64,000 nt of DNA, taken from a virus (lineage: Duplodnaviria; Heunggongvirae; Uroviricota; Caudoviricetes). Position 1 is the first letter of the stretch. Each line of letters starts with the position of its first letter. The position numbers were made by a program, and so were the translations under genes. The DNA is taken from IMG/VR virus record IMGVR_UViG_3300031088_000819. One strand, given 5' to 3'. The notes below the pieces were generated by a model. The model was not told the origin of the DNA. It ran no database searches and saw nothing but the letters and a program-made list of their open reading frames with translations. Positions 7,602 through 61,718 of this stretch are shown piece after piece.

Positions 7602-9725
7602 ATGTCTCAGATCACAGCCGCTTTCCGACAGGCAGCACTACGCCGAGGATTCCTCGTTACTCCTCGTAGGACCAAGGGTTCTGTCAACCCTGCCCTCAAG
7701 TTCGCTGCAGCTATTGAGCTCGCCAACCTGGGTTTCATCGTGGATCCCCAGGAACTCGCTGGTGTGGCCGGCAAAGATCTCTCTGCAGTGATCTCAGAGG
7801 CTCGCACTGTCATCGGCGCTGATCGGGACATGGAGCCCATCTACCCGGGCTTCCCCAAGCAGGTGGAGGAGCTCTCCACGCTCACTCTCCTGGTGGAGCA
7901 GATTCTCCACTACTGGACCGGCGGCGCATTCCTGCCGGATTACCCCAAGGAGGTCCGCGAAGGACTGCCCCTCGAGGACATGCTCCGAAACGCCCGTGAG
8001 CTCAAGGTGCTTCCCGCCGCCGATGTTGCCCGGGAGCTGACTAAGGCTCTCGTGCAGTCTCCCGTCGCGATTTCCGATGATGACCGCAACCTTCTCCTCG
8101 AGGGAGCTAAGCTCATCGATTCGAGCACTGTCAGCATCGTAGAGATCGCTTCTGGCGCGGCCAATGGAGAGAATCTCCAGGCCTTCCAGCGAGCGCTCAT
8201 CGCTGCGGGTGTGGCGGACGGAGCTGACGTCTTCCTGGCTCTCGCACCTCAGGTCAAGACCCTGGATCACCTTCTCCGGCTCTTCCTGGGCAGCTTTGCT
8301 CTGCCCTCGGCAGAGAAGTGGCAGAAGAACTTCGAGCAGGCCGTTGGCAATCTCGCAGATCGCCACGCTCGTTCGGTGGCCTTCGGAGCGGTTCCCCGAG
8401 CTGCCCGCAAGGTCTTCGTGGAGCAGACTGGGAAGCTTTCCCGGGGTTTCTTTGCCGACAGCTTCATCGGTCGACAGGGGCTCTGGCGCCGGGCTCTGAA
8501 GGCCGTCCACTCCTTTGAGCTCGCAAAGGACGACGCGGGCCGCAGGGCTCTTGCCATCGTCCACTCCAACGTTGAGTACCAGACGCTCAACTCCCTCATC
8601 GAGTCCGCTAAGGCCCAGCGAGATGTGGCCAAGGCTGTAGCTCTTCTCAAGGAGCACCGTCCCGGTCAGCTGCTTCGAGAGGTCGTTTCTCTGCTCCGGC
8701 TCGTGGATTCCCACGCAGCGGCCATCGAGCTCGCAGAAGCGCTGCGGGCAACTGCAGGCAAGGCCCGCGTGGACACGCTTGTGAGTGCCTACAATGGCAT
8801 TCTGAGCGCCAACGACGAGGGGCCGCGGGTGAACCGCGTTGCGGGTCTCAACAACACCATGCTTGATCGCTCCAACGTGGCCAAGGTGGACGAGGCCCAC
8901 CTCGCCATCGCCCTGGATGCCATCAAGGTTGCCCTGGTGGAGGCCCTGGCTTCCAAGAAGGCCCCCGAGGGTCCTGTGGCTGTGGGTGGAGCTATGGCTC
9001 TGCCTCTGGTGCGCCGGGACGCCTCTACGGCTGACCGCCAGATGAGCCGTGGTGAAAGCTTCGGTCTCGTGGGCGAGGGAGATGTGATCCGCATCTTCGG
9101 CCACTGGAACAACAACATGGGCCGCCACGGCTACATGGACATCGGTGCAGTGCTTCTCGATGGCGACTTCAAGGAGCTGGCTGTGCTCACCTGGGACACA
9201 TGGAACAACCACCGCTCCTGGGGAACCTACTCGGGCGACAAGAACGTGGCTCCCGGAGACTCCGCTGCTGAGTTCTTCGATCTGAAGCTGGCGGAAATCC
9301 GCAAGCAGAAGCCCGAGGCCAAGTGGATCGCTATGACGGTTCAGTCCTGGTCGGGATTCCCCATCGATGATGTGGACTTCATCGCTGGAGCTATGCTCCG
9401 GTCGAAGGATGGAGTTCAGAAGGGCGAGGTCTTCGACGCTCGGGCGGTCACTACCGCTTTCCACCCCACTACGAAGTCTCTCCAGGCCGTCCCCTTCGCA
9501 GTGGATCTCGAAGAGGGTAAGTTCGTTTGGGTGGATAGCTCCAACGGCTCCACAGAGACCGGAGTTTCTTCCTCCAGGGACAGCTCCATTGGGGCAATCG
9601 TCTACGATGAGATCTCCCGGCCTCGGCTCACTGTCGGAAAGTTCGCGGCGCTCTGGGCCCAGGCCCACGGCGCTGAGACCACCGAGGCAGAGGCCGACGT
9701 GGAGCTGCTCACAGGGCTGCTCTAA
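7602..9725 (+). CDS. large protein (707 aa) with a C-terminal TerD-like domain
   Basis: The C-terminal ~200 aa (DIGAVLLDGDF ... YSGDKNVAPGDSAAEFFDLKL ... IAMTVQSW) match the TerD/TerE beta-sandwich with its GDN-type calcium motif. The N-terminal ~480 aa are alpha-helical and unrecognised. Confidence 0.7.
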   Translation: MSQITAAFRQAALRRGFLVTPRRTKGSVNPALKFAAAIELANLGFIVDPQELAGVAGKDLSAVISEARTVIGADRDMEPIYPGFPKQVEELSTLTLLVEQILHYWTGGAFLPDYPKEVREGLPLEDMLRNARELKVLPAADVARELTKALVQSPVAISDDDRNLLLEGAKLIDSSTVSIVEIASGAANGENLQAFQRALIAAGVADGADVFLALAPQVKTLDHLLRLFLGSFALPSAEKWQKNFEQAVGNLADRHARSVAFGAVPRAARKVFVEQTGKLSRGFFADSFIGRQGLWRRALKAVHSFELAKDDAGRRALAIVHSNVEYQTLNSLIESAKAQRDVAKAVALLKEHRPGQLLREVVSLLRLVDSHAAAIELAEALRATAGKARVDTLVSAYNGILSANDEGPRVNRVAGLNNTMLDRSNVAKVDEAHLAIALDAIKVALVEALASKKAPEGPVAVGGAMALPLVRRDASTADRQMSRGESFGLVGEGDVIRIFGHWNNNMGRHGYMDIGAVLLDGDFKELAVLTWDTWNNHRSWGTYSGDKNVAPGDSAAEFFDLKLAEIRKQKPEAKWIAMTVQSWSGFPIDDVDFIAGAMLRSKDGVQKGEVFDARAVTTAFHPTTKSLQAVPFAVDLEEGKFVWVDSSNGSTETGVSSSRDSSIGAIVYDEISRPRLTVGKFAALWAQAHGAETTEAEADVELLTGLL

Positions 9726-9746
9726 GCTCTAGGCAGCTGCCTCCAG

Positions 9747-9781
9747 GTGGAGCCCCGCACCGCGGGGCTCCACCTTTCCAT
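9747..9781 (+). terminator. intrinsic terminator
   Basis: GGTGGAGCCCCGC acc GCGGGGCTCCACC stem followed by TTTCC. Confidence 0.65.
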
Positions 9782-9788
9782 TGGCCGG

Positions 9789-9923
9789 CTTTTGCTCTAG
9801 ATTCGCGTCTGTCGCATCATCATGCGAAGCGCATAGTATCCAACAGCTCTTGGTCTTAGAGCGTGGAGATTCGATCTAGAGATGCACTGAGAGGGCCGCT
9901 CTAGCGATGGCGTTGAGATCGTG
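9789..9923 (+). repeat. copy B of the ~130 bp intergenic element
   Basis: About 98% identical to copy A. Confidence 0.8.
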
Positions 9924-10025
9924 TTTCCCTGCTAGCGATAGCCAGCAGAAAACGGGTTTAGAGCAACCGTTGCTTGAACTTTCCCCCTGGTGTACTATCT
10001 TATTACACTAACCGTAAGGATCACC

Positions 10026-19462: not shown

Positions 19463-20779
19463 ATGAGTAAGAAAATCTCAGAGCTCACCAGCGAAGAGCT
19501 CCAGGGCGCCAACCACGGAGCTCTAGCGTCAGCCTACGGACAGCTCGTCGGGGCCTCCCTCGCCGAAGACGGCAGCTATTTCACCACAAAGATGCTAGAA
19601 GAGTTCATCTATGCCCTAACCAAGGGCATGAGGCCTTCTCAGCCAAGTGGGCTTCCACCCCACTTCGACGCGATCATCGAGGAGCGCGAGCAGAGCCGCC
19701 ACGATGTGGACAGCTTCTGGAAGAGCGTGTGGCTGAGCCGCATGGAGAAGCTCTTCCTCCACTCCGATGACTGGGAGCGGGGCTATGAGCACAAGACCTT
19801 CACCGCAACCACTCGCCACATCGAGACTGGACGCAAGGTGAGCACGCTCGCGGAGGGTACTCAGGAGTACTTCTACCGCAAGAAAGATGGGGCTTTCATC
19901 TCTATCCATCGGGATAGCTACGGAGATATCTACCTCACCGTTTGGCATGAGAGCGGAGTAGATTCCTCCGCAGCTATCGATCCCATCCTCGACTACGTGG
20001 AGGATCCTGACCCCTACGATGGAAAGGTGCTTCGGCTCTCAGCTTCGGGCATTAAGATCATGGATCTTGCCGAAGAGGAGCTTACACCCTACGATGAGAG
20101 TGTAGAGTCGGCTATCTCCTGGATGAGCTCCATCGGGAAAGAATCGGTGCGAGAGGCGCTCAAGAAGGCCAAGCTACCAGCCCGCGCGGGGCTTCTGCTC
20201 GATGGCCCTCCCGGCTCTGGTAAGACCACACTAGCCCGTCGGGTTGCACGGGACCTCTCAGTCCAGGGAACTACTGTCGTCTATGCAACGCCTGAGCTAG
20301 ACATCGAAAGCATCTTCTCCTTCGCAGACAGCTACGAGCCCGTGCTCATCATTCTCGAGGATGTGGAGTCCTTCTTCGGCGAGCGGGGCATGAGTGATTT
20401 CAGCAGCTTCCTCAACGTGCTGGATGGCATGGATCAGGAGGGCGGCAAGATGGTGCTCGCAACCACCAACGATTCTTCGAAGTTCGATGAGGCCGTGAAG
20501 CGTCCCGGTCGCCTCGAGCGCCGAGCTGTTATCTCTGACATCAAAGCCGGAGCCCACGAGGAGATGCTTTCCACACGGCTTCCCCTCGAGGATGAGCTCA
20601 CCATTAGCGCACTGGTGAAGGTCATTCGGATGAAGATGGAGGGCAAGACAATCACTCCAGCGGTGGTGGATTCCCTCGCACGCCATGCGATCATGCTGGG
20701 CATCGAGGGCGACGAACTCATCACCTACGCTTCGAAGGAATGGGAGCCCCACTACGATGGAGCTTCCTACATCGATTGA
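19463..20779 (+). CDS. AAA-family ATPase with an unknown N-terminal domain
   Basis: Walker A GPPGSGKTT, Walker B LIILEDVESF, sensor-1 ATTND, and Arg finger in RPGRLERR. Confidence 0.8.
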   Translation: MSKKISELTSEELQGANHGALASAYGQLVGASLAEDGSYFTTKMLEEFIYALTKGMRPSQPSGLPPHFDAIIEEREQSRHDVDSFWKSVWLSRMEKLFLHSDDWERGYEHKTFTATTRHIETGRKVSTLAEGTQEYFYRKKDGAFISIHRDSYGDIYLTVWHESGVDSSAAIDPILDYVEDPDPYDGKVLRLSASGIKIMDLAEEELTPYDESVESAISWMSSIGKESVREALKKAKLPARAGLLLDGPPGSGKTTLARRVARDLSVQGTTVVYATPELDIESIFSFADSYEPVLIILEDVESFFGERGMSDFSSFLNVLDGMDQEGGKMVLATTNDSSKFDEAVKRPGRLERRAVISDIKAGAHEEMLSTRLPLEDELTISALVKVIRMKMEGKTITPAVVDSLARHAIMLGIEGDELITYASKEWEPHYDGASYID

Positions 20780-25768: not shown

Positions 25769-26197
25769 ATGAAGATCACTGTTGCTAACACTGTCGAGGC
25801 TGTCAACATTGTTAAGAACGATGATGGCACTGTGAGCATCGAGCTCAAGGGCGTGGACGCTGTCCGAGCTGAGGTGAAGCAGATCGCAAAGAAGCCCGCT
25901 GGCGGCATCAAGCTCATTCACAGTGGAGTTCGAGGCATTCCCGTGCTCTCCCGGGCCCAGAACGAGAAGATCACAGCCAGCAAGTGTGGCGTTCCCTTCA
26001 TGGACAGCAAGCTTCGACAGAAGCTCATTGAGAACGGCGCCCCCATGCTCGTTCGCGTCAATGTCTCTGATGCTAATATGTATACCAGCCAGAAGTCCGC
26101 TGCGAAGCACGGCATTCAGCTTCGCTTTGAGGCCACTCACAAGATTGAGGGAGACACCAACGCTCGAGGTAACGTCTACGCTGAGCTCGTCTGGTAG
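25769..26197 (+). CDS. hypothetical protein, probably strongly expressed
   Basis: 142 aa ORF framed by a consensus promoter and a strong terminator. Confidence 0.55.
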   Translation: MKITVANTVEAVNIVKNDDGTVSIELKGVDAVRAEVKQIAKKPAGGIKLIHSGVRGIPVLSRAQNEKITASKCGVPFMDSKLRQKLIENGAPMLVRVNVSDANMYTSQKSAAKHGIQLRFEATHKIEGDTNARGNVYAELVW

Positions 26198-26207
26198 AAA
26201 GCACTAT

Positions 26208-26241
26208 AAGAGGGGCGCCGCTGCGGCGCCCCCTCTTATTA
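26208..26241 (+). terminator. intrinsic terminator
   Basis: AAGAGGGGCGCCG ctgc GGCGCCCCCTCTT, a perfect 13 bp stem, followed by ATTAGC. Confidence 0.7.
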
Positions 26242-26585
26242 GCATGAGCCAATGTTTTGAAGTCTAAAAGCAGTCTAGCAATGTTGTAGATGGCGATCTA
26301 TATGCCCTATGGTAGCCTTAGCAGCACGAGACAAATGAATAACATCATGGAGATTTTCTAGCGCCTCCTAGATGTTTTCAGCATCGAGAAATTTCTCCTC
26401 GCTTGAGAAAATCTCATTTATCTTCCCCTGGCTATCGCAGCATCTTTGTAGTTCACTATAGATTTGGTTCAATGTGGTGTAATTCTGGTTCAATATGGCG
26501 CATTATGCGACCATCTTCTAATCCGTGTATGCAAACAGAACTCGCTTTGATATAGCTATTGTCTTTATTTTATAGCGAGGTTAGC

Positions 26586-27863
26586 ATGGACACCACATTT
26601 ACCATCATTGAAGAAAATAAATCTACCATTGCTGGACTAGGTGATTTACAGCTCACAATAGAATTAGGTATTCCCTATTACTTGCCGTCACACCGGGGTG
26701 ACTATCAGGGCCTCTGGAATCTTCTAGAGGAATTCGAAACCTTAGTGCTAAGCACCAAGAGAAACGAACTCTTAGAAAAAGAGAGAAATTTTTTGAGAGA
26801 GGCCAAGTCCAAGGGTTTCGTGGTGGTATTAGCTGGTCCAAGTCCATTCTTTTGGGAAAAGGGTGACGGAGAACTAATAGATCACAAAATATCTCTGGAT
26901 CCATTCCAAGAACAAGATCACTCACCACAGAGAGATGTGGCTTTCTTTTTCGAAGGATCAGGTTTAAAGTCTGATTTCCATAGAAGAGATGTCCAAGTTA
27001 CCATCTCTATATCTAAATTTCTGATTTCCTCTATGCGCAAATCTAAGAGTGAGATCGAAGAGGCTTCCTACGAAATTACTAAATATTTCCCCACAAGCGG
27101 GAAACTTTATATTTCAGAAATTGACTCCATACCTAATTGGCTTATTTTACAACTTTTGAAAGAACTTGAAAGTAAAAATACATCACTTGTGATCCTAAAT
27201 GAAAATCGAAAGATCACAGCAAAGGAATTGGAAGAATTCAGAAATGAGATTAAGCGAAGATGGAGAGATAATCTTCCCAGACAAGTGATTGTTTTAGATC
27301 CAGAGGGCAATAGAGCTAGTAAATTAAAAGGCGCGATAGACGCAGCTAGTAGCTATGAAAATCGATCTGGTCATGTAGATGTAGATTACTACAAGGGTGG
27401 AGATGAAATCGGCTGGAAATGGGAAGGTGCCTTTGAAAAAGCTAGAAACACTCCTAATGTTTTTCTAGTTGTTGAAGATGGCTCAGTTCTTCAACGTAGA
27501 GCAATGGATATACGAAAATATCTCAGTGAAATAGAAGCACTTGGTGGAGGTCTGTCCTTTGCCCACCAATCTAATGCGCTTTTTCACCATTTGGGAGCAG
27601 GATTTTACATTCTAGCAGATGAACCTCTAGCTAAGCTTGTAGAGCATCTTAAAGTAGATTCCTATCTCGACGAAATGAGCCTACAGACTCCCGTAAACCA
27701 AAGCGCCCTTTCAGAATATTCCCAAAATGTCGCTGTCAAACTGAAAGAACAAGGGAAAACTATTCAAGAGACATCGAAGATCATGGGAGTCAATAAATCA
27801 ACCATAAGCCGTTGGTTTAAAACGCTAAGAGGTCAACAAAGCAACCACGAAGATGAAAACTGA
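26586..27863 (+). CDS. protein with a C-terminal helix-turn-helix, in the low-GC island
   Basis: C-terminal KTIQETSKIMGVNKSTISRWFK is a resolvase/transposase-type HTH. Paralogous to 28633-29280. AT-rich codon usage. Confidence 0.55.
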   Translation: MDTTFTIIEENKSTIAGLGDLQLTIELGIPYYLPSHRGDYQGLWNLLEEFETLVLSTKRNELLEKERNFLREAKSKGFVVVLAGPSPFFWEKGDGELIDHKISLDPFQEQDHSPQRDVAFFFEGSGLKSDFHRRDVQVTISISKFLISSMRKSKSEIEEASYEITKYFPTSGKLYISEIDSIPNWLILQLLKELESKNTSLVILNENRKITAKELEEFRNEIKRRWRDNLPRQVIVLDPEGNRASKLKGAIDAASSYENRSGHVDVDYYKGGDEIGWKWEGAFEKARNTPNVFLVVEDGSVLQRRAMDIRKYLSEIEALGGGLSFAHQSNALFHHLGAGFYILADEPLAKLVEHLKVDSYLDEMSLQTPVNQSALSEYSQNVAVKLKEQGKTIQETSKIMGVNKSTISRWFKTLRGQQSNHEDEN

Positions 27864-27930
27864 TAGCTCCAATAACAGATAAACAAACAATTCACAGCTG
27901 TCCGAAATGCTCTCAATATAAGGAAATACT

Positions 27931-28377
27931 ATGAAAAGTAAGAAGAAACCTATGAGCCAATTTGTGGCATCGACACTGATGGATCTGGATGAACTGATAC
28001 TACGGCCACATTCGGGTTGGGTAGACGGAGCAGGCGTCCTCAACGAAGTTGACTGGTTCAGCACCGATGAACACAAAGCGAACAAGGAGAAAGGTCTATC
28101 CCACTCCTACAAGGAACCGTTCAGATCGAGAGGCTACCAAATAGCTCAGAGCCTGTCAGACAGCTCCTGGTGGGGAATCCGCTGGAACGATGCCTATGAG
28201 TTCATCAGCGAACACAAGGGGAAAGAAGCCGCAGCAAAGTTCGTTGAGATCAGGTTGGATCTAGCCGACAGGCAAGGCTGGTCTGGATATGGCCGGGACG
28301 GAGAGAGGCGACCACGAATAACTGTGTTTAGCGCTCCAAACATCGTCGTGCCTACGGAGGATGATGAAAAATCCTAA
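27931..28377 (+). CDS. hypothetical protein
   Basis: 148 aa. SD AAGGAAATA upstream. Confidence 0.45.
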   Translation: MKSKKKPMSQFVASTLMDLDELILRPHSGWVDGAGVLNEVDWFSTDEHKANKEKGLSHSYKEPFRSRGYQIAQSLSDSSWWGIRWNDAYEFISEHKGKEAAAKFVEIRLDLADRQGWSGYGRDGERRPRITVFSAPNIVVPTEDDEKS

Positions 28378-28392
28378 ACTAGTGCTATAAAA

Positions 28393-28424
28393 ATAGCCCC
28401 GAGCTTCAGCTCGGGGCTATTTAG
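28393..28424 (+). terminator. intrinsic terminator
   Basis: ATAGCCCCGAGC ttca GCTCGGGGCTAT stem followed by TTAGTG. Confidence 0.6.
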
Positions 28425-28632
28425 TGATGCCAATAACAGAATATTTATCTTTGAAATTAACTAAAAATTCAAAAGTTTGCTAACATTCCCACTTATGAGT
28501 ATCTAGATGCAAAATCTTATTTCGATTGATCTAAGGAACAAGATATTCTATGTCCTATTTTTAGCAATAGTTGCTTTGATATGGTAATTGATCGTTCCGG
28601 AAATTCCACGATCTTATTACATGGAGTAATTT

Positions 28633-29280
28633 ATGTCCAATCAAAGAACATACGCCCTAGTAGTAGATAGCCAAGAAGAACTTCAAAGATTTATAGGTCT
28701 TAGAGGTATCATAAGTGATGCTGAAGGCATGAGCGGAATAAGAAATTTAGATACTCTACAAGCTCAAGGCAATTTCAAAATCTACGGTGAACTCGAAGAA
28801 GATTCTTTCGGTAAGAAACGCAGTGGTACCAATATAGCAGAAGCCATCAAATATGTAACCACTCATCGCAATAGTGTCCTAGGAGTCACCTCTATTGAAC
28901 AAATTTCTAACAATATCCAAACTATTGTAGAAATACTGCAAGACATCCATGCAGCAGGAAGCGGAATCGTAATTAGATTTTCCTCCAGGGGCCTAGAGTT
29001 GAAATTTAGTCAGAGCGGTGAATACAATGGTTGGATCTGGATTGGTCAGGCTCTAGCCGATTTCATCGAACAAGTAAAGATTGCTGCCTACTTCGATGAG
29101 ATGTTCCACCCAAGTGCTTGGGCTAAGATTCCTAATTCTAAAATGTATCAGGTTTGGGATCAGATCAGTGCTGAAAAGAGCAATGCAGCTGTGTCTAGAG
29201 CTACCGGCATTTCAGAAAAAACAGTAGCTAAGCTAAGGCGCCGATTCAAAAATTTGGAAACCATCTATCGGAATAGATGA
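28633..29280 (+). CDS. protein with a C-terminal helix-turn-helix, paralog of 26586-27863
   Basis: C-terminal AAVSRATGISEKTVAKLRRRFK is an HTH. Shared block LA(K/D)..E..K..(S/A)Y(L/F)DEM. AT-rich. Confidence 0.55.
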   Translation: MSNQRTYALVVDSQEELQRFIGLRGIISDAEGMSGIRNLDTLQAQGNFKIYGELEEDSFGKKRSGTNIAEAIKYVTTHRNSVLGVTSIEQISNNIQTIVEILQDIHAAGSGIVIRFSSRGLELKFSQSGEYNGWIWIGQALADFIEQVKIAAYFDEMFHPSAWAKIPNSKMYQVWDQISAEKSNAAVSRATGISEKTVAKLRRRFKNLETIYRNR

Positions 29281-30881
29281 TGGTGCTAACACAAAGAAAA
29301 GAGTCCGCCAATAGCGATGCTGAATTAGTGGCGGTGGACTCCGCTACGGCTCTATCTTTTCTAGAAGAGCACTCCACCTCGGACAAAGATAGGCCAGGCA
29401 GCAATCTACGAAGCTGGGGCATAGAGGGGAATGGACAGCTCTTAGCAGTAATAGCAATCTGTAATCCTCGCACCCTAGAGCTTCAGAAAAGCTATACAAC
29501 TGAGCTCTATGGACTAGCTGTCTCAAATCAAAAGGCCAGTGGAGAGCTGATCAACTCTCTCATGAGCATAGCGATGGAATCAGGCATTCCAGACCTTTTC
29601 ATCCAAGGAGAACGAGCAAAAGAATATGGACAATACGGATTCGAGCGATCAACTGTTAGCAGTGATAATTCTGAGAGCTCAATCTATCATTGGCGTGATC
29701 CCTCAGTTCGATTTTACACCTACAAAATCACTAGCTCAAAGGGCAAAGGTTACTACATAGGCCGCCACAGAACAAGCCTGGAAACCATCGAAGAAATGGT
29801 CACCGATGGCTACATGGGCAGTGGGGGAGTGAAGTATAAAAACTGGATAGCCTCAGTTGGCGAAGAGACACTCTCCAAGGAAATTACAGGAGTCTATGGC
29901 ACTTGGAAGGAAGTAGTAGCTGCAGAAGAACAGCTCATCGGAAATCTCTATAAAACAGACAGCAATTGTAAGAACAGCAAACCGGGAGGCATAGGGCTTA
30001 CCAGCTATATGCCTGCATACACTATAGATTTTTGTCCCATACATGGGAAAACGAAGTTCAGAGGAAGGTGCCATAAATGCACAGTAGGTGATGCCCAGTC
30101 TCTGAAGGAATGCACTATACATGGACTCGTACTACATCGTGGTGATTCTTGTTTTACCTGCGTTAGAAGCAAAACTAACACTAAAAAGGAATGTTTAGTT
30201 CATGGTTTAGCTATCCACTATGGTGACACTTGTTCAAACTGCGCTAGCGCAGCAGCTAAACAGCTAGCAGAGTGCGAAATTCATGGATTTGTCATTCACC
30301 AGGGTAGCTCTTGTGCAACATGCGTAGCTGAAAAATCTGTTTCCCTTAAAATTTGCGCCATCCATGGAGAGACCAAGCATGTTGGCCAACACTGTCGTAA
30401 ATGTCTTAATGGCAGCGTAATAACTGAAAGCAATTGTCCCATTCATGGTCTAACCTCTTTCAAGGGCGAGAGCTGCGTCAAGTGCTCTGCAGCAAAGAGT
30501 TGGGCTATCTTTGAGTGTCCTATCCACGGTCAGACCAAACATCGAGGCAACAGCTGTGAAAAATGCACTCAGCAACAACGAGCTGCAGAGCAAAGAGCCC
30601 TTGAAGTGGTTCAAAGCTGCGCCACGCATGGCGAAACCGCTTTTCTCAAAGGTGAGTGCAAGCGCTGCGTAGCTCAAAAGAAAATATCCCTGAAGAAGTG
30701 CCCCACTCACGGGAAAACCAAACACACGGGGAATACTTGTGGAAAGTGTCTGGTGGCAAAGGTATGGACCACCGAAGAGTGCTCCATCCACGGTCTAGTT
30801 AAGCACCGCTCTGGCAAGTGTCAAAAGTGTGCTGCTCTCGCTAGCTGGGCAAAGCGCAAAGCCAAGGCGAAGGTAGATTAG
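29277..30881 (+). CDS. GIY-YIG-like domain protein with ~9-12 tandem zinc-ribbon repeats
   Basis: FYTYKITSSKGKGYYIGRH resembles a GIY-YIG nuclease motif. It is followed by a tandem array of C-x-x-HG-x3-(H/F)-x4-C-x-x-C units (~18 aa each). ATGA overlap with the upstream gene. AT-rich. Confidence 0.6.
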   Translation: MMVLTQRKESANSDAELVAVDSATALSFLEEHSTSDKDRPGSNLRSWGIEGNGQLLAVIAICNPRTLELQKSYTTELYGLAVSNQKASGELINSLMSIAMESGIPDLFIQGERAKEYGQYGFERSTVSSDNSESSIYHWRDPSVRFYTYKITSSKGKGYYIGRHRTSLETIEEMVTDGYMGSGGVKYKNWIASVGEETLSKEITGVYGTWKEVVAAEEQLIGNLYKTDSNCKNSKPGGIGLTSYMPAYTIDFCPIHGKTKFRGRCHKCTVGDAQSLKECTIHGLVLHRGDSCFTCVRSKTNTKKECLVHGLAIHYGDTCSNCASAAAKQLAECEIHGFVIHQGSSCATCVAEKSVSLKICAIHGETKHVGQHCRKCLNGSVITESNCPIHGLTSFKGESCVKCSAAKSWAIFECPIHGQTKHRGNSCEKCTQQQRAAEQRALEVVQSCATHGETAFLKGECKRCVAQKKISLKKCPTHGKTKHTGNTCGKCLVAKVWTTEECSIHGLVKHRSGKCQKCAALASWAKRKAKAKVD

Positions 30882-30943
30882 TTCCGTGATCTTCGTTAGA
30901 ATGGTTCTGTCTCATTGAACACTAACTAGAGGGGCTGGTAACC

Positions 30944-32035
30944 TTGGCTGTAGGACGGATGTATCCACAAACCATCGACAACGCAATAGCGATGCTGGAA
31001 AAGGTCTTCAAGAATTTTGAAAAAGCAGATTCTGGAGATGAAGATCGCTTCGTGTCAATTCTCATTAGCCGCCCTGGCCTCGGGAAATCTGCAACCATCG
31101 CAAAGATGGCAAAGCGCATGGGCTATGATTTGGTAGACCTTAATCTTGCCCAGTTAGATCCTACTGACGCACTAGGACTTGGAGCGAGAGAAAAAATTAA
31201 TGGCAAATGGGAAACTCACGTAGCTCTTCCCCAATGGGTTCATCGTGCAATGGCCGGAAAGTGCATCATTCTTGTGGATGAGTTCAATATGGGAACTCAA
31301 GATGTGCTTGGATCTTTCCAAAAGATGTTCTCGGATTTCGTCATCGATGGTGAAAAGCTCCCGAGGACTACCCACATCATCGGTGCCTGCAATCCTCCCG
31401 GCAAGGATGCTATCTTCGCAGCAAAGCGGCTCTCGGGAGCCTTCCGGCGTCGTCTTTGCATGATTCCCATCATCGATGACTTCGAGTACGTGCAGAAAAA
31501 GCACGGCTTCATCATGCCTCGGGGCTTTGTGAAGCCCAACTACGAGGACATCATCAACTATTGCAGCTACGATGAGATCTCCTCGGCAGTTGTGGATAAT
31601 GTCTTCAACATCGCCTCCTACGATGGACTCAAGGACGCAGAGAAGATCTCCCTCGTGGCGGGCTTCGGAGAAAAGGCCTTGGAGTTCGCCCAGGAGCTGG
31701 ACCTCTTCGCTAGCCACCTCTTCGCCTCCAGCTACAAGGCCACCAACTCGGAGCTCACCTACGTGGAGTGGAAGCGCAACCCCGAAGACTCCATCCCCGA
31801 GTACCAGCAGATCCTCTGGGGCCAAGAGTCCATCAAGAACAGCAGCTCCTACAACAACCAGAAGAAGTTCCTTTCCAGAATCGAGAACAACAGGGTCTAT
31901 GTGGCTCTCTATGCGCTCGTCAAGGAGAAGTTCGATGTGGATTACGAGGTAGATGAGGCCAAGCTGCCCGACTCAAAGGAGGACCCCACGGGTCAGCTGT
32001 CTGCTGTCGGTTCCACTGTCGAGGAGCAGGGCTAA
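30944..32035 (+). CDS. MoxR-like AAA+ ATPase (AAA_5 type)
   Basis: Walker A RPGLGKSAT, Walker B CIILVDEFN, sensor IIGACNP. Confidence 0.75.
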   Translation: MAVGRMYPQTIDNAIAMLEKVFKNFEKADSGDEDRFVSILISRPGLGKSATIAKMAKRMGYDLVDLNLAQLDPTDALGLGAREKINGKWETHVALPQWVHRAMAGKCIILVDEFNMGTQDVLGSFQKMFSDFVIDGEKLPRTTHIIGACNPPGKDAIFAAKRLSGAFRRRLCMIPIIDDFEYVQKKHGFIMPRGFVKPNYEDIINYCSYDEISSAVVDNVFNIASYDGLKDAEKISLVAGFGEKALEFAQELDLFASHLFASSYKATNSELTYVEWKRNPEDSIPEYQQILWGQESIKNSSSYNNQKKFLSRIENNRVYVALYALVKEKFDVDYEVDEAKLPDSKEDPTGQLSAVGSTVEEQG

Positions 32036-32036
32036 A

Positions 32037-33905
32037 ATGGCGCGGCTCCAGAAGAACTTTTCCTACGGTGAGCTCTGGACTGATCAGCCCGTTCGTAAAA
32101 GCGAAGTAGAGGGACTCCACGGCAGGGTAGAGGAGAGCCTTGCAAAGTTCACCACCAATGACGCCTTTGTGGACTTCGCAGAGCAGCATGGCTACAGGTT
32201 CTACATCGACTACGACTTCGACGGCGTAGCTCGTACCAACGTGACTGCCCGCGAGATCATTGTCAATGGCAACTATCCCGATGAGCTACTGAGTTCCTTC
32301 ATCCAGCACGAGATGGGCCACCTCATGCTCTTCGACGTGAACCAGTTTGTGACAGTGGGTAAAACCACCATGCGCTCTACAATCGCCGATGTGATCTACA
32401 CGCCAGAAAATCTCTCCACCTACGGCATGAGGCAGCTGCTACTCCTGGAGAACATCATCCAGGACATCATCATTGAGACCGTTTCGGATGGTTTCTGCGT
32501 TTGCAGCAATAGCCTCACCCACCTGGGTGGCAACATGGGCGTAAAGCACCTCCCCAGCCTCGAAGACACGAAGATCATTGCTCGAGAAGCCGCCAAAACG
32601 GTTCTCCGGGTAGAGGACAACTCCGACTTCAGCTCCGAGGAACTCGGCGACCTTCGGGGACTTTTGGAATCCATGCTAAAAGATCTCGAAGCGGATATGG
32701 GCGAGATCGGCGAGGAGATCAAGAAGAATTCCACCACCAACAAGTTCTCCGCCGAGAAGAGTCTTCAGAGATTCCGGAAGCTCCACGCTAAGAAGCAGCA
32801 GCTGGAAAAAGTTGAGAAAAAGCTCGCTAAAAAGTGGAACTCCAAGCTCCAAGCTCTCGCTGACAGGTTGGAGGGGGAAATCGAAGAGCTCGAAAGCCCC
32901 GAAAGAATAGAGAAGGACGCCGAGGAGGCGGAAGCGGAGCGGGCCAAGGAGGGGAAGAGACTCTCGGATAAGCTCGAAGCTGCGGGAGAGCTTCATAAGG
33001 CCCTCGAAGAACAACTCCGCAAGGCCGAAGAAGCGGAGGCCGAGCGAGACGCCTCCGGGGAGGATAAGAAAGCTGGTGGCGAGGCGAGCAAAGAGCTCAT
33101 CAAGAACTACACTGACCGCAACAGCTCCGACGATGAGGCCCCCGAAAATCCAGGCCACTCCTTCGATTGCGGGTTCCCTCATCCCGTCACCGTCGACCGC
33201 AGTGAGTCCCATGGGAATGAGCGCCATCTTCGCAAGATCAGTGGTGGCGTGAGAATCAAGACTTTGAGGCTCACCGAAGATGACGCTGATAACTCCATCG
33301 GCGGCAGAAGAAAAGCCCAAACGAGCGAGTACACCTATTTCAAGTCTGCCAAGAAGGAATTCGATGAGACAGACATGCTCAAGGGTAAGCGGAGGGAGAA
33401 GCTCACTGGCATCAATGTGCTCATTGGACTGGATGTCTCGGGTTCTATGACCAATGAATGGACTTCCATGTTCAGTGAGATCTCTAGGCTGGTGGAGGAA
33501 CTCAAAGAAACTCTTGACATCGAAGAAATCATCTACTTCACCTACAACCATAGGCTCCGGCAGCACTCCAGGGAGTTCTCCGACCTGAAGCTCACAGCTA
33601 GCGGCGGCAACGCATTTGGCTATGTCTACCAGGATATGATGACGCGGCTCCCCATGCTCCAAAAAAATGAGATCATTCTGGTGACAGACTGTGGAGATAG
33701 TCTAGGGTTCAAGCTCAACTCTGTCTGCCAGGCGGAGCGCAATGGCGTGGAGGTGGAGAACCACATCTCCATCATTGACACGGAGGGCGCTGGTTTCTAC
33801 GCTAAGAGTGACTTCCAGGCTGAAGATTGGGACATCTATTCGGCCAAGGACAAAAAGCTCTACAAGGGCATCAAGGATCGCATAGAAGAGCTCATCGAGC
33901 GATAG
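32037..33905 (+). CDS. zincin-like (HExxH) plus C-terminal vWA (MIDAS) protein with a central charged coiled coil
   Basis: FIQHEMGHLM near the N-terminus. LIGLDVSGSM MIDAS motif near the C-terminus. About 130 aa of E/K-rich coiled coil between them. Starts 2 nt after the AAA gene. Confidence 0.7.
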   Translation: MARLQKNFSYGELWTDQPVRKSEVEGLHGRVEESLAKFTTNDAFVDFAEQHGYRFYIDYDFDGVARTNVTAREIIVNGNYPDELLSSFIQHEMGHLMLFDVNQFVTVGKTTMRSTIADVIYTPENLSTYGMRQLLLLENIIQDIIIETVSDGFCVCSNSLTHLGGNMGVKHLPSLEDTKIIAREAAKTVLRVEDNSDFSSEELGDLRGLLESMLKDLEADMGEIGEEIKKNSTTNKFSAEKSLQRFRKLHAKKQQLEKVEKKLAKKWNSKLQALADRLEGEIEELESPERIEKDAEEAEAERAKEGKRLSDKLEAAGELHKALEEQLRKAEEAEAERDASGEDKKAGGEASKELIKNYTDRNSSDDEAPENPGHSFDCGFPHPVTVDRSESHGNERHLRKISGGVRIKTLRLTEDDADNSIGGRRKAQTSEYTYFKSAKKEFDETDMLKGKRREKLTGINVLIGLDVSGSMTNEWTSMFSEISRLVEELKETLDIEEIIYFTYNHRLRQHSREFSDLKLTASGGNAFGYVYQDMMTRLPMLQKNEIILVTDCGDSLGFKLNSVCQAERNGVEVENHISIIDTEGAGFYAKSDFQAEDWDIYSAKDKKLYKGIKDRIEELIER

Positions 33906-34050
33906 ATTCGGCCACTAGAGGTGCCACATGGCGATCTGAAGAACTTTCAGCCAATCTAGCGAGGGATGTTGTTCTTCGCTATTCTAGGTTCTCAGAACAC
34001 ATTCCTCAGCCCTGTTGTGGAATCGCTGCCTTTAGCGTAAAATAGCTGCT

Positions 34051-34434: not shown

Positions 34435-34470
34435 CTCTTACATTTTTAGCAGTTGAAGAGAAAGAAACCT

Positions 34471-35379
34471 ATGGAGAAGAAATTCCACGCGGCAGTTGGC
34501 AAAGTGAAGTCCAGCCATCCCCTCATCAATGAAGTTTACCACTTGATCTTCGTAGTAGCTGGTGGTGTGCTCGCGGCTCTGGGGCTCGAAGCCTTCCTCA
34601 TCCCCCACGGCTTCCTTGACGGTGGACTCACTGGTATCTCCATCATCCTCTCCAAGTTCATCAACATTCCCGTCGGCGTATTCATCGCTGCCCTCAACCT
34701 GCCATTCATTGCCCTCACCTGGTGGAAACTGGGTAGACGCTCGGCCTTTAGGACCACCGTGGGCGTGGCTACCCTAGCTGTTTTTGCTGTGCTGCTACAC
34801 CACATGGATCCCTGGACTGACAACTATGTGCTAGCGCTCTTCTATGGTGGTGCGCTCTTGGGCTTCGGCGTGGGCATCGCTCTGCGAAATGGTGGAGCCC
34901 TGGATGGCACAGAAGCCCTCGCCACCATGATCTCCAACAAGAGCCGCTACTCTGTAGATCAGCTCATTCTAGGCATTAACGTGGTGGTCTTTGTAGTAGC
35001 GGGCTTTGTCATGGACTGGCAATCGGCCATGTCTTCGGCGCTACTCTTCTACATCGTCGTCTCTACGCTCATCGACAAGATCGTGAATGGTACCCACGAT
35101 TTCAAGAACGCTGTGATTTCTACAGTCCATCCCGATGAAGTGGCTGCCGCCGCACTAGCTGTCACTAAGCGCCATGTTCTCGTGGATCGCAAGAAGATCT
35201 GGCACCACGATGATAGGGAAGACGACTGTGTCTATCAGCTGCGCCTAGTCATCACTCGACTGGAGGCTTCGGAGCTCTCGGAGAAGGTCATCGAAGTGGA
35301 CAAAGATGCCGTCATTGTCTTCAACGAGATCAGCTCTCTCCGAGGCGGAGTCTATGAAGATCTCAACAGTAGCCACTAA
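34471..35379 (+). CDS. YitT-family (DUF161/DUF2179) membrane protein
   Basis: GGVLAALGLEAFLIPHGFLDGGLTGISIIL and ALNLPFIAL are characteristic of YitT. Confidence 0.7.
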   Translation: MEKKFHAAVGKVKSSHPLINEVYHLIFVVAGGVLAALGLEAFLIPHGFLDGGLTGISIILSKFINIPVGVFIAALNLPFIALTWWKLGRRSAFRTTVGVATLAVFAVLLHHMDPWTDNYVLALFYGGALLGFGVGIALRNGGALDGTEALATMISNKSRYSVDQLILGINVVVFVVAGFVMDWQSAMSSALLFYIVVSTLIDKIVNGTHDFKNAVISTVHPDEVAAAALAVTKRHVLVDRKKIWHHDDREDDCVYQLRLVITRLEASELSEKVIEVDKDAVIVFNEISSLRGGVYEDLNSSH

Positions 35380-42016: not shown

Positions 42017-43180
42017 ATGAACAGTCGACCACTTCGAGTCCTTTCCCTCTATGACGGCTTTTTCGTGGGCGGCTCTCGCATTGTCCACACGGCCACAGTG
42101 GCGGGACTCCACCGAAGCCCGGAGTTCAACCAGGAGCACAGGGTGATTTCCCTCACCAACAAGGTCCAGAGGGAATACACGGTTCAGCATGCCGTGGACA
42201 CTCCCTCCTGGAGCGAGCTCCAACGGGCCGGAGTCTCCATTCAAGCGCTAGACAGGATGCCCACGAGCCCCTGGAGCGCTACGGATTTCAACCAGCTACG
42301 AGAAGCCATCGAATGGGCAGATGTGGTTTTTAGCCTCAAGGAGCAGCCCCTCGTGGGCCTCAAGGCCCTGGGAGAGCCCCTCGAAAAGCCCCTCGTGGTT
42401 AGCCTCCACCGCTCCGACCCCGAAAACCAAGGCCAGGGCACCGCCGACCTCCTGGACTTCCACAGCTCTGGAGAGCTCACCCGGCTGGTTTCCTGCGCAG
42501 AGTCCGCTCGGGATTCTTACGTGGATATCGGATTGCCGAGGGAGCTCATCGAGGTGATCCACAACGGCGTCGATCTGGATAAGTTCCGGCCCTCCAATGA
42601 TGGCTGGTCATCCCTGAGGGAGGCACTGGGCATACAGAGCCAGAGTCCCGTAGTCGCCATCGTTGCCCGCTTCGACGAGATGAAGAACATTCCCCTCTTC
42701 ATGGAGTCTGCTGGCAAGTTCCTGCAGCTCCATCCGGACAGCCATTTCCTGGCGGTTGGTGCTGGCATGAGCAAAGAGAACGCCGCCTTTGGTGATCTCA
42801 TGGAGCGCTTCATCCCACTGGAGCACTGGCCACAGATCCACGGATTGGGCATATACCCCGATGTGCCATCTGTCTACAGAGCTGCGGACATCGTGGCGCT
42901 GACAAGCGCCTTCGGAGAGGCTGCACCCCTGTGCCTCTTGGAGGCCATGGCCTGCGGCGCCGTTCCTGCCACCACGCCCGTGGGTGATTCCGCGCTGCTG
43001 GTGCGAAAGCCACAGTTCACCACAAACTGGGACTCTTCGGAGATAGCCCAGCGGTGGGGGGAGCTCTTCGACGCCAAGGAAGTCCATCGGGCCACCATCG
43101 CCGAGTTCAGAGAGGAGCTCGGTGAGGTGCCGATGATAAGAGCTTTCGGAAGGGTTCTCGAAGGGGCAGCAAGAGCCTAG
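42017..43180 (+). CDS. family 1 (GT4) glycosyltransferase
   Basis: C-terminal GT1 E-x7-E signature (FGEAAPLCLLEAMACG). Preceded by ARFDEMKN. Confidence 0.8.
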   Translation: MNSRPLRVLSLYDGFFVGGSRIVHTATVAGLHRSPEFNQEHRVISLTNKVQREYTVQHAVDTPSWSELQRAGVSIQALDRMPTSPWSATDFNQLREAIEWADVVFSLKEQPLVGLKALGEPLEKPLVVSLHRSDPENQGQGTADLLDFHSSGELTRLVSCAESARDSYVDIGLPRELIEVIHNGVDLDKFRPSNDGWSSLREALGIQSQSPVVAIVARFDEMKNIPLFMESAGKFLQLHPDSHFLAVGAGMSKENAAFGDLMERFIPLEHWPQIHGLGIYPDVPSVYRAADIVALTSAFGEAAPLCLLEAMACGAVPATTPVGDSALLVRKPQFTTNWDSSEIAQRWGELFDAKEVHRATIAEFREELGEVPMIRAFGRVLEGAARA

Positions 43181-45018: not shown

Positions 45019-46098
45019 ATGGGTTCCCTTATTCTTACAGTTCTGCTTCTAGTTCTGCTGGTGGCAGGACTCGTATCGGCGCGGCTAGCGTCTCGAAAGA
45101 TCAAGGCAGCCAAGGCTCAGCTGAAAGCTCCAGCGCCCCAGGAGTCCTCTGGCAAAAATCGAGGCTACGACTACGGCTACGAGGAACAGCGCCAGGCTCG
45201 CGCCAAAAAGCTCAAGTCCAAGATCACTGTTCAGTCCTACGTTCGCTGGGGCTCTCGGGCGGTCTCCGTTCTTTCTCTAGCGCTCATCGCCATCATGTGC
45301 TTCACCACCGTTTCCGCGAAGAACGTGGGTGTAGCGGTAACCTTCGGTGCGGTTTCCGAGAACACTCGAGCTCCGGGTATCCAGACAAAGCTACCCTGGA
45401 CGAAGATCATCGAGATCGATGGCACGATTCAGACAGACCAGTATAGTGGCGAGAACTGCATCGCCGTTCGCATCGGCGACGGAAGCCAGGCCTGCGCTGA
45501 AATCGTCAACCGCTGGCAGATCAACCCCGAAAAGGCCGCTGGCATCTACGAGCAGCACCGGTCGGATGATCCTACTCAGTCTTTCCGCTCCGCCATCGTT
45601 AGCACTCAGCTGAAGCAGTCCGTTCAGGAAGCTCTGAAGAACTACAACCCCATCGCTCAGCTCAAGGCTGTGGGAGGGGACGAGCTGTCCACCGATCTGT
45701 CCTTCGCTCCCGACTACGGTGAGATCTCCAAGGTCATCGAAGACGACATGAAGAAGCGGCTATCCGATAAGAACCAGGCTCAGATCGAAGGCATCACTTT
45801 CTCCTATCTGAAGCTCTCCGAGAACACCCAGCGCAAGCTCGATGACTACGTAGCTGCAATCGGTGAGACTCGCATTGCCACCCAGCAGCGAGAGACCGCC
45901 AAGGCTCAGGCTGAGGCCAACAAGGAACTGTCTGCATCTGTTAGCAACGACCCCAACGTGCTCGTGTCGCGCTGCTTCGACATGCTCAAGGATGCAAGCC
46001 AGACTGGCTACCAGCTCCCTGCGGGCTTCAGCTGCTGGCCTGGTGGTGGCTCGGGCGTGGTGATTCCGGGGGTTCCTGGAGCCTCCACTACCGAGTAA
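45019..46098 (+). CDS. SPFH/band-7 (prohibitin-like) domain membrane protein
   Basis: N-terminal TM helix, a basic linker and a second TM. VSAKNVGVAVTFGAVSE..APGIQTKLPWTKIIEID resembles the SPFH core. C-terminal coiled-coil-like region. Confidence 0.55.
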   Translation: MGSLILTVLLLVLLVAGLVSARLASRKIKAAKAQLKAPAPQESSGKNRGYDYGYEEQRQARAKKLKSKITVQSYVRWGSRAVSVLSLALIAIMCFTTVSAKNVGVAVTFGAVSENTRAPGIQTKLPWTKIIEIDGTIQTDQYSGENCIAVRIGDGSQACAEIVNRWQINPEKAAGIYEQHRSDDPTQSFRSAIVSTQLKQSVQEALKNYNPIAQLKAVGGDELSTDLSFAPDYGEISKVIEDDMKKRLSDKNQAQIEGITFSYLKLSENTQRKLDDYVAAIGETRIATQQRETAKAQAEANKELSASVSNDPNVLVSRCFDMLKDASQTGYQLPAGFSCWPGGGSGVVIPGVPGASTTE

Positions 46099-61680: not shown

Positions 61681-61718
61681 ACATTGTGGAAAATGTCCAA
61701 AAGGTGTATCGTAGTAAT

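Follow-up and report, generated by a model that had tools for sequence, protein, structure and literature searches.

A phage-borne AAA+ ATPase gene paired with the gene of a stalked vWA protein with a zincin-like head in a very large phage-like genome

What would a phage do with a MoxR-like ATPase whose gene is joined to that of a partner carrying both a peptidase-like motif and a domain of the von Willebrand factor A (vWA) type? The question is raised by two adjacent genes in a stretch of 64,000 nucleotides (nt) from IMG/VR record IMGVR_UViG_3300031088_000819; the whole of this stretch is called the window here, and coordinates are window positions unless another locus is named. The first gene (30944..32035) encodes an AAA+ ATPase of the AAA_5, or MoxR-midasin, clade, a relative of gp027 of Lactococcus phage KSY1 and of gp24 of phage N4. 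The second (32037..33905) encodes a protein of 622 amino acids (aa), called the partner, with a zincin-like head, a helical stalk, an acidic linker and a vWA domain. Both genes and all their parts described below are on the + strand. On balance, the pair is probably a phage-encoded two-component machine for ATP-driven remodelling and cleavage. It is a sharply delimited, divergent and undescribed branch of a phage module known from N4 and from jumbo phages.

Both predicted open reading frames (ORFs) are real genes and not chance ORFs, because homologue clusters exist for each of them in the databases (60 for the partner and 70 for the ATPase, with E-values from 1e-72 to 0). The ATPase is 363 aa long from a TTG start, which has GAGGGG 9 nt upstream; an alternative in-frame ATG is found five codons in, at 30959. 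A public protein on a 475,499-bp contig of the Joint Genome Institute (P0061) is identical to the 363-aa TTG product. The junction of the genes reads TAA-A-ATG, with the ATG of the partner (32037) one base past the ATPase stop and with GAGGAG upstream of it. The ATPase gene lies directly upstream of the partner gene in nine out of nine independent loci (counted from the window, KSY1, L003, L004/L005, L006, L008, L009 and L010), and the distance between them lies between an overlap of 4 nt and a gap of about 70 nt. The genes adjoin in every locus, often with coupled translation, and with such a count a chance juxtaposition is excluded. The first-pass annotation had placed both ORFs at these positions and had called the pair tightly coupled, and both statements hold. 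Scans for sigma-70 promoters and intrinsic terminators around the pair gave signals at chance level only and therefore leave the boundaries of the operon undefined.

The predicted ATPase is a genuine enzyme of the AAA_5 clade, outside the named MoxR subfamilies, and it is probably active. It passes the Pfam model AAA (PF00004) with 25.4 bits against a cut-off of 21.2 and, narrowly, the gathering score of AAA_5 (PF07728) with 24.7 bits against 22; N4 gp24 itself reaches 20.4 bits, just under this threshold. In PHROGs it matches phrog_1297, the family of N4 gp24, with E 4.5e-23. The best solved relative in a profile search with the ATPase family was midasin (E 2e-7), and CobS was a weak match in the PDB (E 0.25). 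The AAA_5/MoxR-like class assigned to the protein earlier is upheld by the Pfam score and the midasin match. No MoxR, RavA, CbbQ/NorQ or CobS model was matched in an NCBIfam scan, which returned FlhF and RFC noise at E >0.02.

Conservation in the ATPase was read from an alignment of 26 homologues with 42-88% identity. The Walker A motif, or P-loop, is P44-G-L-G-K-S49 (31073..31090), with P44, G45, G47, K48 and S49 invariant in the 26 sequences, and the Walker B acidic pair D112-E113 (31277..31282) is invariant as well. Between them lies a segment of 24 aa (aa 75-98, 31166..31237) in which D75, G78-L-G-A-R-E-K84, W89, T91, A94, P96 and W98 are invariant. This segment is in the correct place for a helix-2 insert and aligns with the corresponding segment of the midasin AAA domains, and by analogy it may be such an insert facing the pore of a ring; the pore-facing role of the inter-Walker insert is taken from the NorQD structures (PMC13036017). 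An invariant signature of AAA_5 type (31382..31453) runs from G147-A-C-N-P-P-G153, with N150 as sensor 1, to the arginine cluster A166-F-R-R-R170, and the stretch including R168-R170 aligns with 'NPPG...LSRAFRNRF' of midasin. The C-terminal half of the protein (aa 180-363, 31481..32032) is specific to the lineage: it is conserved in the family and in KSY1 gp027 but cannot be aligned with N4 gp24.

Conservation in the partner was read from 37 aligned homologues with 33-86% identity, and the whole protein was modelled in AlphaFold2 with a predicted local distance difference test (pLDDT) score of 80.2 and a predicted template modelling score (pTM) of 0.76. The N-terminal domain (aa 1-192, 32037..32612) is zincin-like and consists of a beta-sheet, an active-site helix and further helices; in the model of the whole partner its alpha/beta core spans aa 30-190. 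The predicted metal-binding and catalytic motif is H91-E-M-G-H95 (32307..32321), with H91, E92, G94 and H95 invariant. A following helix carries invariant N139, D143 and E147 at i/i+4 spacing and is succeeded by invariant C154-x-C156 and H171 (32451..32549). E147, D143 and N139 of this next long helix are candidates for the third metal ligand, and C154-x-C156 with H171 may form a second metal site. Modelled in isolation, the domain reached a pLDDT of 90.6, and the HExxH region is ordered; the first-pass annotation, which had pointed out the HEMGH motif as metallopeptidase-like, had allowed that the region might be disordered.

The fold matches of the head are minimal zincin peptidases: PprI/IrrE (score 5.7), the predicted zincin acel_2062 (5.2) and BlaR1 (5.1), then ZMPSTE24, projannalysin and Spartan (5.0 each) and selecase (4.9), and lower down CapP, ArdC and lethal factor (4.7 each). 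None of these scores is high, and some helical proteins of no relation stand among the zincins. A minimal zincin fold is nevertheless supported, because independent zincin families recur and the invariant HExGH falls on the aligned helix. What the head has in common with the minimal zincins of the IrrE/ImmA, SprT/Spartan, minigluzincin and M48/M56 groups is a beta-sheet, the HExxH helix and a next helix with conserved acidic residues. The invariance of the putative catalytic E92 argues for true hydrolysis and not for a pseudo-enzyme.

At the other end, the vWA domain (aa 456-622, 33402..33902) was recognized by Foldseek against the PDB, by phrog_1314 and by hhalign to the N4 gp25 family. It appears in the AlphaFold2 model as an alpha/beta domain at aa 450-622. 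The top 27 Foldseek matches were vWA or integrin I-domains, with probability mostly 0.85-1.00 and modest E-values of 1e-3 to 1e-1; NorD from the 2026 NorQD complex (9qhe_G) and the metal-ion-dependent adhesion site, or MIDAS, domain of MDN1 were among them. The MIDAS motif is D466-V-S-G-S470 (33432..33446), with D466, S468 and S470 invariant. In T550-D-C-G-D554 (33684..33698), the residues T550, D551, C552 and D554 are invariant. By position and by analogy with 'FTT...FTD' of N4 gp25, the invariant D551 is a candidate for the distal MIDAS aspartate and T502, conserved in >=90% (at least 90%) of sequences, for the MIDAS threonine. A search with the whole-partner profile against PDB sequences returned coiled-coil noise only. 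A vWA domain at the C-terminus, carrying a DVSGSM MIDAS (aa 466-471), had been named in the first-pass annotation, whose structural claims on both proteins are borne out.

Directly before the vWA domain is an element of aa 378-455 (33168..33401) composed of H-S-F-D-C-G-F/L-P-x-P, a helix, beta-hairpins and T-Y-F-K-S-x-K-K-E. In the AlphaFold2 model the helix and hairpins are ordered at aa 378-433, with a floppy loop at 417-427, and T-Y-F-K-S-x-K-K-E aligns with Y-T-W-x-R-P-N-R-R of DUF2201 proteins. This element is a candidate for the 'finger' by which the vWA domain would reach the ATPase. The strongly conserved G-H-S-F-D-C-G-F/L-P-x-P (aa 374-383, 33156-33185), directly after the acidic linker, could be a pore finger, a pseudo-substrate in the zincin cleft or a site of self-cleavage.

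The head and the vWA part are joined by a charged helical stalk (aa 200-340, 32634..33056), modelled as helices 200-233, 236-265, 269-286 and 288-340 at a pLDDT of about 90, and by a disordered acidic linker (aa 341-377, 33057..33167) with pLDDT <50, which the AlphaFold2 model shows at 342-377. Residues D, E, K and R make up 47% of the stalk, which is the least conserved part of the protein: the mean pairwise identity is 26% there, against 47% in the head and 55% in the vWA domain. The stalk is probably a hairpin in the model, because its two helix runs are roughly equal in length. A charged coiled coil had been proposed for this region. The charge and the helices stand, but a crude Fourier test for hydrophobic periodicity of 3.5 residues (the heptad) on aa 200-340 was weak, so a canonical coiled coil is not insisted on and the region is better worded as a charged helical stalk or hairpin. 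The spacer between head and vWA domain measures 244-336 aa in most members and up to 711 aa in those with low-complexity acidic inserts.

By the available family models the partner is nearly invisible. It has no significant match to a Pfam, NCBIfam or PADLOC model, Pfam domains are nearly absent across its 60 homologue clusters, and its sole library match is phrog_1314 (E 2.7e-8, aa 427-552). DUF2201_N (PF13203) of Pfam is unmatched even at E up to 1. The VWA-like model PF09967 gives no hit to the window protein and a sub-threshold one (E 0.061) to its KSY1 orthologue. In hhalign, the family was weakly related to the single N4 gp25 sequence (probability 13%). Aligning family to family raised only the vWA part, where aa 427-541, with the vWA core and the pre-vWA motif, reached E 2.3e-4 and a probability of 44%. 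In a fold search of the partner in BFVD, KSY1 gp028 came first (E 1e-26), followed by DUF2201-type phage proteins named 'Metallopeptidase domain protein' or 'VWA-like domain-containing protein', which matched over about 600 columns and both domains with E 1e-5 to 1e-7 and include a protein of Klebsiella podophage vB_KpP_FBKp27. Further matches were CobT-like proteins of Gordonia phages and ORF892 of Acidianus two-tailed virus (ATV; E 3.5e-4).

An HExxH head, a compact vWA domain and a neighbouring AAA_5 ATPase gene are also the architecture of DUF2201/COG3864 proteins. The partner is best taken for a strongly diverged form of the gp25 architecture into which a stalk is inserted, and it fails the sequence definitions of that family. 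The COG3864/DUF2201-like label given to it earlier is therefore kept for the architecture and for the remote homology of the C-terminal part, and not for the Pfam models DUF2201_N and DUF2201, which it fails. The partner with its inserted helical region had been called an unusual variant, and N4 gp25-type DUF2201 proteins have only a short variable linker in that place. N4 gp25 (L002, 6149-7291) is labelled 'HNH endonuclease' in RefSeq, and so is phrog_1314. This label is evidently wrong, because Pfam finds DUF2201_N (3e-87) and DUF2201 VWA-like (1e-46) on N4 gp25, and through it a wrong annotation is spreading for a gene that belongs to the core set of N4-like phages.

The module is a phage one: apart from KSY1, only very large phage-like genomes carry the family. 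A HMMER search of 1.84 billion cluster representatives with a profile of the N-terminal domain gave 25 strong hits, all of this architecture; 24 of these are proteins of 596-1070 aa matched from their N-terminus, and P0131 (192 aa) is a fragment consisting of the N-domain only. Beyond them there were two weak matches to short proteins with E of about 1e-4. No locus with the pair was found in 185,579 GTDB species genomes (one genome per species), and a prophage or chromosomal origin was rejected on this ground. IMG/VR contains two loci, one on a 419,707-bp viral contig and one in KSY1. The other carriers are ORFan-rich metagenome scaffolds of 178-765 kb, which encode DnaB, Toprim, ParA-like, actin-like, ADP-ribosyl, tRNA-synthetase-fragment and metabolic genes; the sizes of the scaffolds of L003, L005, L006 and L009 include 419,707, 491,046, 670,612 and 764,730 bp. 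Should the 765-kb scaffold represent a single phage genome, it would be among the largest known. Searched as DNA against 50,697 phage records, the pair returned nothing, and the relatives were found at protein level only.

How such a pair would work can be drawn from its solved relatives. By comparison with NorQD, CbbQO and midasin, the ATPase would assemble as a hexameric ring, on which one partner would dock through the finger beside its vWA domain (candidate aa 378-455). The finger would enter a pore lined by the invariant GLGAREK..W.T segment (ATPase aa 75-98). The MIDAS metal would grip an acidic side chain of a client protein, and hydrolysis of ATP would pull or twist the vWA domain against the stalk and linker. 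The client may thereby be exposed and then cut by the zincin head, so that the peptidase would ride on the adaptor and not sit within a chamber. In the 2026 NorQD structures the vWA finger is seen in the ring pore and the NorD linker is twisted by ATP (PMC13036017). Such docking is presumed by the authors to be general for AAA+/vWA pairs (PMC13036017). The MIDAS of CbbO grips an acidic residue of rubisco (PMC4660213).

The position of the genes suggests that the pair acts inside the cell, in the middle phase of infection, rather than as a late virion module. This suggestion is based on three circumstances: the KSY1 pair is flanked by PK3 and PK4, hypothetical promoters of the phage RNA polymerase; the N4 pair is located among middle genes, beside RNAP2 and dCTP deaminase (PMC4193335); and DnaB or primase (Toprim) genes are near the pair in three huge-phage loci.

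Several points weigh against a remodelling-and-cleavage machine of this kind. That a ring forms, that the partner docks on it, that metal is bound and that proteins are cut are inferences throughout, for this family and for N4 gp24/gp25 alike. The N-terminal domain has no significant sequence tie to any peptidase family, and its profile reached no DUF2201 protein or other relative in the 1.84 billion representatives. When the heads of the family and of N4 gp25 were aligned family to family in hhalign, the HExxH helix alone was aligned, with E 0.14 and a probability of 0.4%. For the third metal ligand of the head there is a set of candidates, picked from the sequence. The position of a gene is weak evidence for its timing or its client, and for jumbo-phage pairs Iyer et al. 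favour a role in virion assembly (PMC7824862).

The last point leads to a serious rival, by which the same machine would be dedicated to virion morphogenesis and would chaperone and proteolytically process head or tail proteins. It is proposed for the closest described analogue, which is encoded by group 2.2 jumbo phages (PMC7824862). A role in tail assembly was shown for the corresponding MoxR/vWA proteins of ATV, whose ORF892 is the structural match mentioned above, and roseophages have a second structural module near their gp24/gp25 homologues (PMC4193335). No recognisable structural gene is, however, found near the pair in the window and six related loci, where it is surrounded by ORFans and by YitT membrane protein, DnaB, Toprim, ParA-like and metabolic genes. 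Also, the N4 pair is on a middle transcript, and the KSY1 pair is upstream of the packaging ATPase block. A morphogenetic client would be compatible with this gene context, and virion maturation is considered a minority explanation that has to be taken seriously.

Somewhat less likely is that the pair only chaperones a client or inserts a metal, as modules of the NorQD, CbbQO or CobST type do, in which case the HExxH head would be a pseudo-peptidase that holds a metal or binds the client and cleaves nothing. All characterised MoxR/vWA pairs remodel or insert metals and do not cleave (PMC13036017, PMC4660213). NorD (9qhe_G) is among the vWA matches, CobT-like phage proteins were met in BFVD, and the layout of the partner mirrors that of NorD and CobT. 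Against this stand E92, the general base needed only for hydrolysis, which is invariant across 33-86% identity, and the fold matches to the active peptidases PprI/IrrE, Spartan, BlaR1 and ZMPSTE24. Identity with NorQD, CbbQO or CobST was rejected, as NCBIfam gave no NorQ/NorD, CbbQ/O or CobS/T match, and no recognisable nor, cbb or cob genes are nearby; the housekeeping system of NorQ/NorD type that the first-pass annotation had held out as an alternative is thus not what the pair matches.

Least probable of the three is a conflict system in the MoxR-vWA ternary sense, or a superinfection-exclusion or anti-defence effector by which invaders or defence proteins of the host would be sensed and destroyed. 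In its favour, the family occurs in phage-like elements only, its stalk diverges fast, mobile selfish genes adjoin the pair and a targeted protease is a plausible anti-defence weapon. Both catalytic domains, however, are conserved and not diversifying, and the N4 counterparts belong to the core gene set of an entire phage family (PMC4193335), a status that fits an essential housekeeping step better than it fits an accessory weapon. MoxR-vWA-VMAP ternary systems need a conserved third component (PMC7159879; Kaur et al. 2020), and none was recognized: only the two genes are common between loci and the flanks differ in every one, as judged without a VMAP-specific model. PADLOC gave no match for the ATPase and three chance-level matches for the partner (E 0.03-0.1), and identity with a defence system was rejected as unsupported. 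The idea of an NTP-dependent ternary conflict system, raised in the first-pass annotation, finds no support here. The metal-insertion and conflict-system explanations are both less likely than the remodelling-and-cleavage machine.

A bolder form of the remodelling-and-cleavage machine can be stated, and it is put forward as speculation that is rather unlikely to prove right as a whole. It would be a new type of targeted AAA+ protease in very large phages and KSY1, with the peptidase at the tip of a long helical lever on its vWA adaptor; the client caught by the MIDAS, which may be a particular defence or replication protein of the host, would be opened mechanically by the MoxR-type ring and cut once, and not threaded into a degradation chamber. 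ATPases of MoxR type with a vWA partner occur widely; a mechanism has been worked out for only a few, none of which carries a peptidase, and phages keep a version with a zincin head. In N4-like phages the module counts among about 14 core genes. If N4 gp24/gp25 work alike, this would explain a module that an entire phage family conserves. The present family adds the long helical stalk and marks a set of very large phage-like genomes. It is overlooked by current Pfam, NCBIfam and PADLOC models and is offered by PHROGs only an 'HNH endonuclease'-labelled family for the partner. In practice, the first gain is better annotation.

The window comes from a phage-like genome of very large size. Its long ORFs are nearly all on the + strand and mostly without family assignment, no tRNAs were found, and the GC content is about 54% except in an island of 41-44% at about 26-30 kb. 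The pair is the sole feature that the window has in common with KSY1 and with L004/L005 within 10 kb (a region of 17 kb was compared for KSY1). A YitT-family membrane protein with five transmembrane segments and a DUF2179 tail is encoded at 34453-35379, 0.5 kb downstream of the pair. A gene at 15567-16463 of L003 (the 765-kb scaffold), 3.6 kb downstream of the pair there, shares 45% identity with it, and no counterpart was found in the other loci. The other recognisable genes of the window, in order, are 19463-20779 for a second AAA protein, in which the NTPase region resembles nSTAND3 as well, 42017-43180 for a GT4 glycosyltransferase, 45019-46098 for an SPFH/Band 7 protein and 61686-63038 for a nicotinate phosphoribosyltransferase (NAPRTase) of NAD salvage. 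L009 is the most divergent of the huge-phage loci. There (8895-9930) the ATPase frame breaks at about residue 110, just before Walker B, into two ORFs that overlap, and the partner is intact; a sequencing error, a pseudogene or a programmed frameshift could each account for the split.

The low-GC island (26000-30900) is directly upstream of the ATPase gene and looks like a selfish insertion. The first-pass annotation had described the context of the pair as mobile-element-like; this applies to the island with its homing endonuclease, and the surroundings are otherwise those of a huge phage-like genome. Encoded in the island are a protein of 434 aa that has an HTH_23 domain at its C-terminus, a resolvase-like/HTH protein of 215 aa (sub-threshold, E 8e-4) and, at 29277-30881, a homing-endonuclease-like protein of 534 aa (phrog_314, E 6.9e-11). 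The last contains about 10 tandem Cys/His units of about 28 aa each, C-x-I/T-H-G-x(4-6)-H/F-x-G-x-C-x-x-C, which look like a zinc-ribbon array. It has no Pfam match and no tandem repeat at DNA level, and kinship to the DUF4379 proteins flanking the pair in L004/L005 was rejected, as there is no similarity. The island genes are unmatched in the related loci whose flanks were compared. The 11-mer ACTAGAGGNGC occurs exactly twice in the window, at 30925-30935 and 33914-33924, with one copy 9 nt ahead of the ATPase start and the other 9 nt past the partner stop, and the downstream copy is followed by an ORF of three codons (ATG GCG ATC TGA). This repeat was not used as evidence: it was noticed post hoc, it is at chance level when one mismatch is allowed, and the flanks show no further alignment. 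Its core CTAGAGG is mildly enriched in the window (21 against 12.5 expected).

Among known systems, NorQ/NorD, CbbQ/CbbO, RavA/ViaA, CobS/CobT and midasin have an ATPase of the same clade and a partner vWA domain with MIDAS, and NorD and CobT are laid out, like the window partner, as an N-domain, a long linker and a vWA domain. The cellular MoxR/vWA partners are without the HExxH head and stand in a cellular context, whereas the window pair has the head, a phage context and no client operon. The pairing of a MoxR ATPase with a metallopeptidase-vWA protein, as such, is not new in phages. In group 2.2 jumbo phages, Iyer et al. (2021) described a MoxR AAA+ with a vWA co-chaperone fused to an N-terminal metallopeptidase (PMC7824862). 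Virion assembly with peptidolytic processing was proposed there, with the ATV tail system cited (PMC7824862). This pair (ASV44729.1, ASV44728.2) has the same concept and is set beside the window pair by its description only, in which a stalk insertion is not described.

The core genes of N4-like phages (Schitoviridae) include gp24, listed as 'unknown', and gp25, listed as 'vWFA' (PMC4193335), and N4 gp24/gp25 are likewise an AAA_5-type ATPase followed by a protein with a zincin head and a vWA domain. The window ATPase is homologous to N4 gp24, with 29% identity over aa 36-181, but the C-terminal halves are unrelated. N4 gp25 has 380 aa and no helical stalk, with a short, variable, Gly/Ser-rich stretch where the window protein has stalk and linker, and the gap between the N4 genes is 167 nt, compared with one base in the window. 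The nearest counterparts are gp027/gp028 of KSY1 (Chopinvirus), the only family members from an isolated phage, annotated merely as 'gp'. Their order and architecture are the same, stalk included, and their spacing is 2 nt; the ATPases are 43% identical over 93% of the length and the partners 28-33%. The carriers are far apart, KSY1 being a 79-kb podovirus of a low-GC Firmicute and the window a part, with 54% GC, of a contig of about 475 kb. As KSY1 is a cultivable phage of a genetically tractable host, the role of the module is directly testable there.

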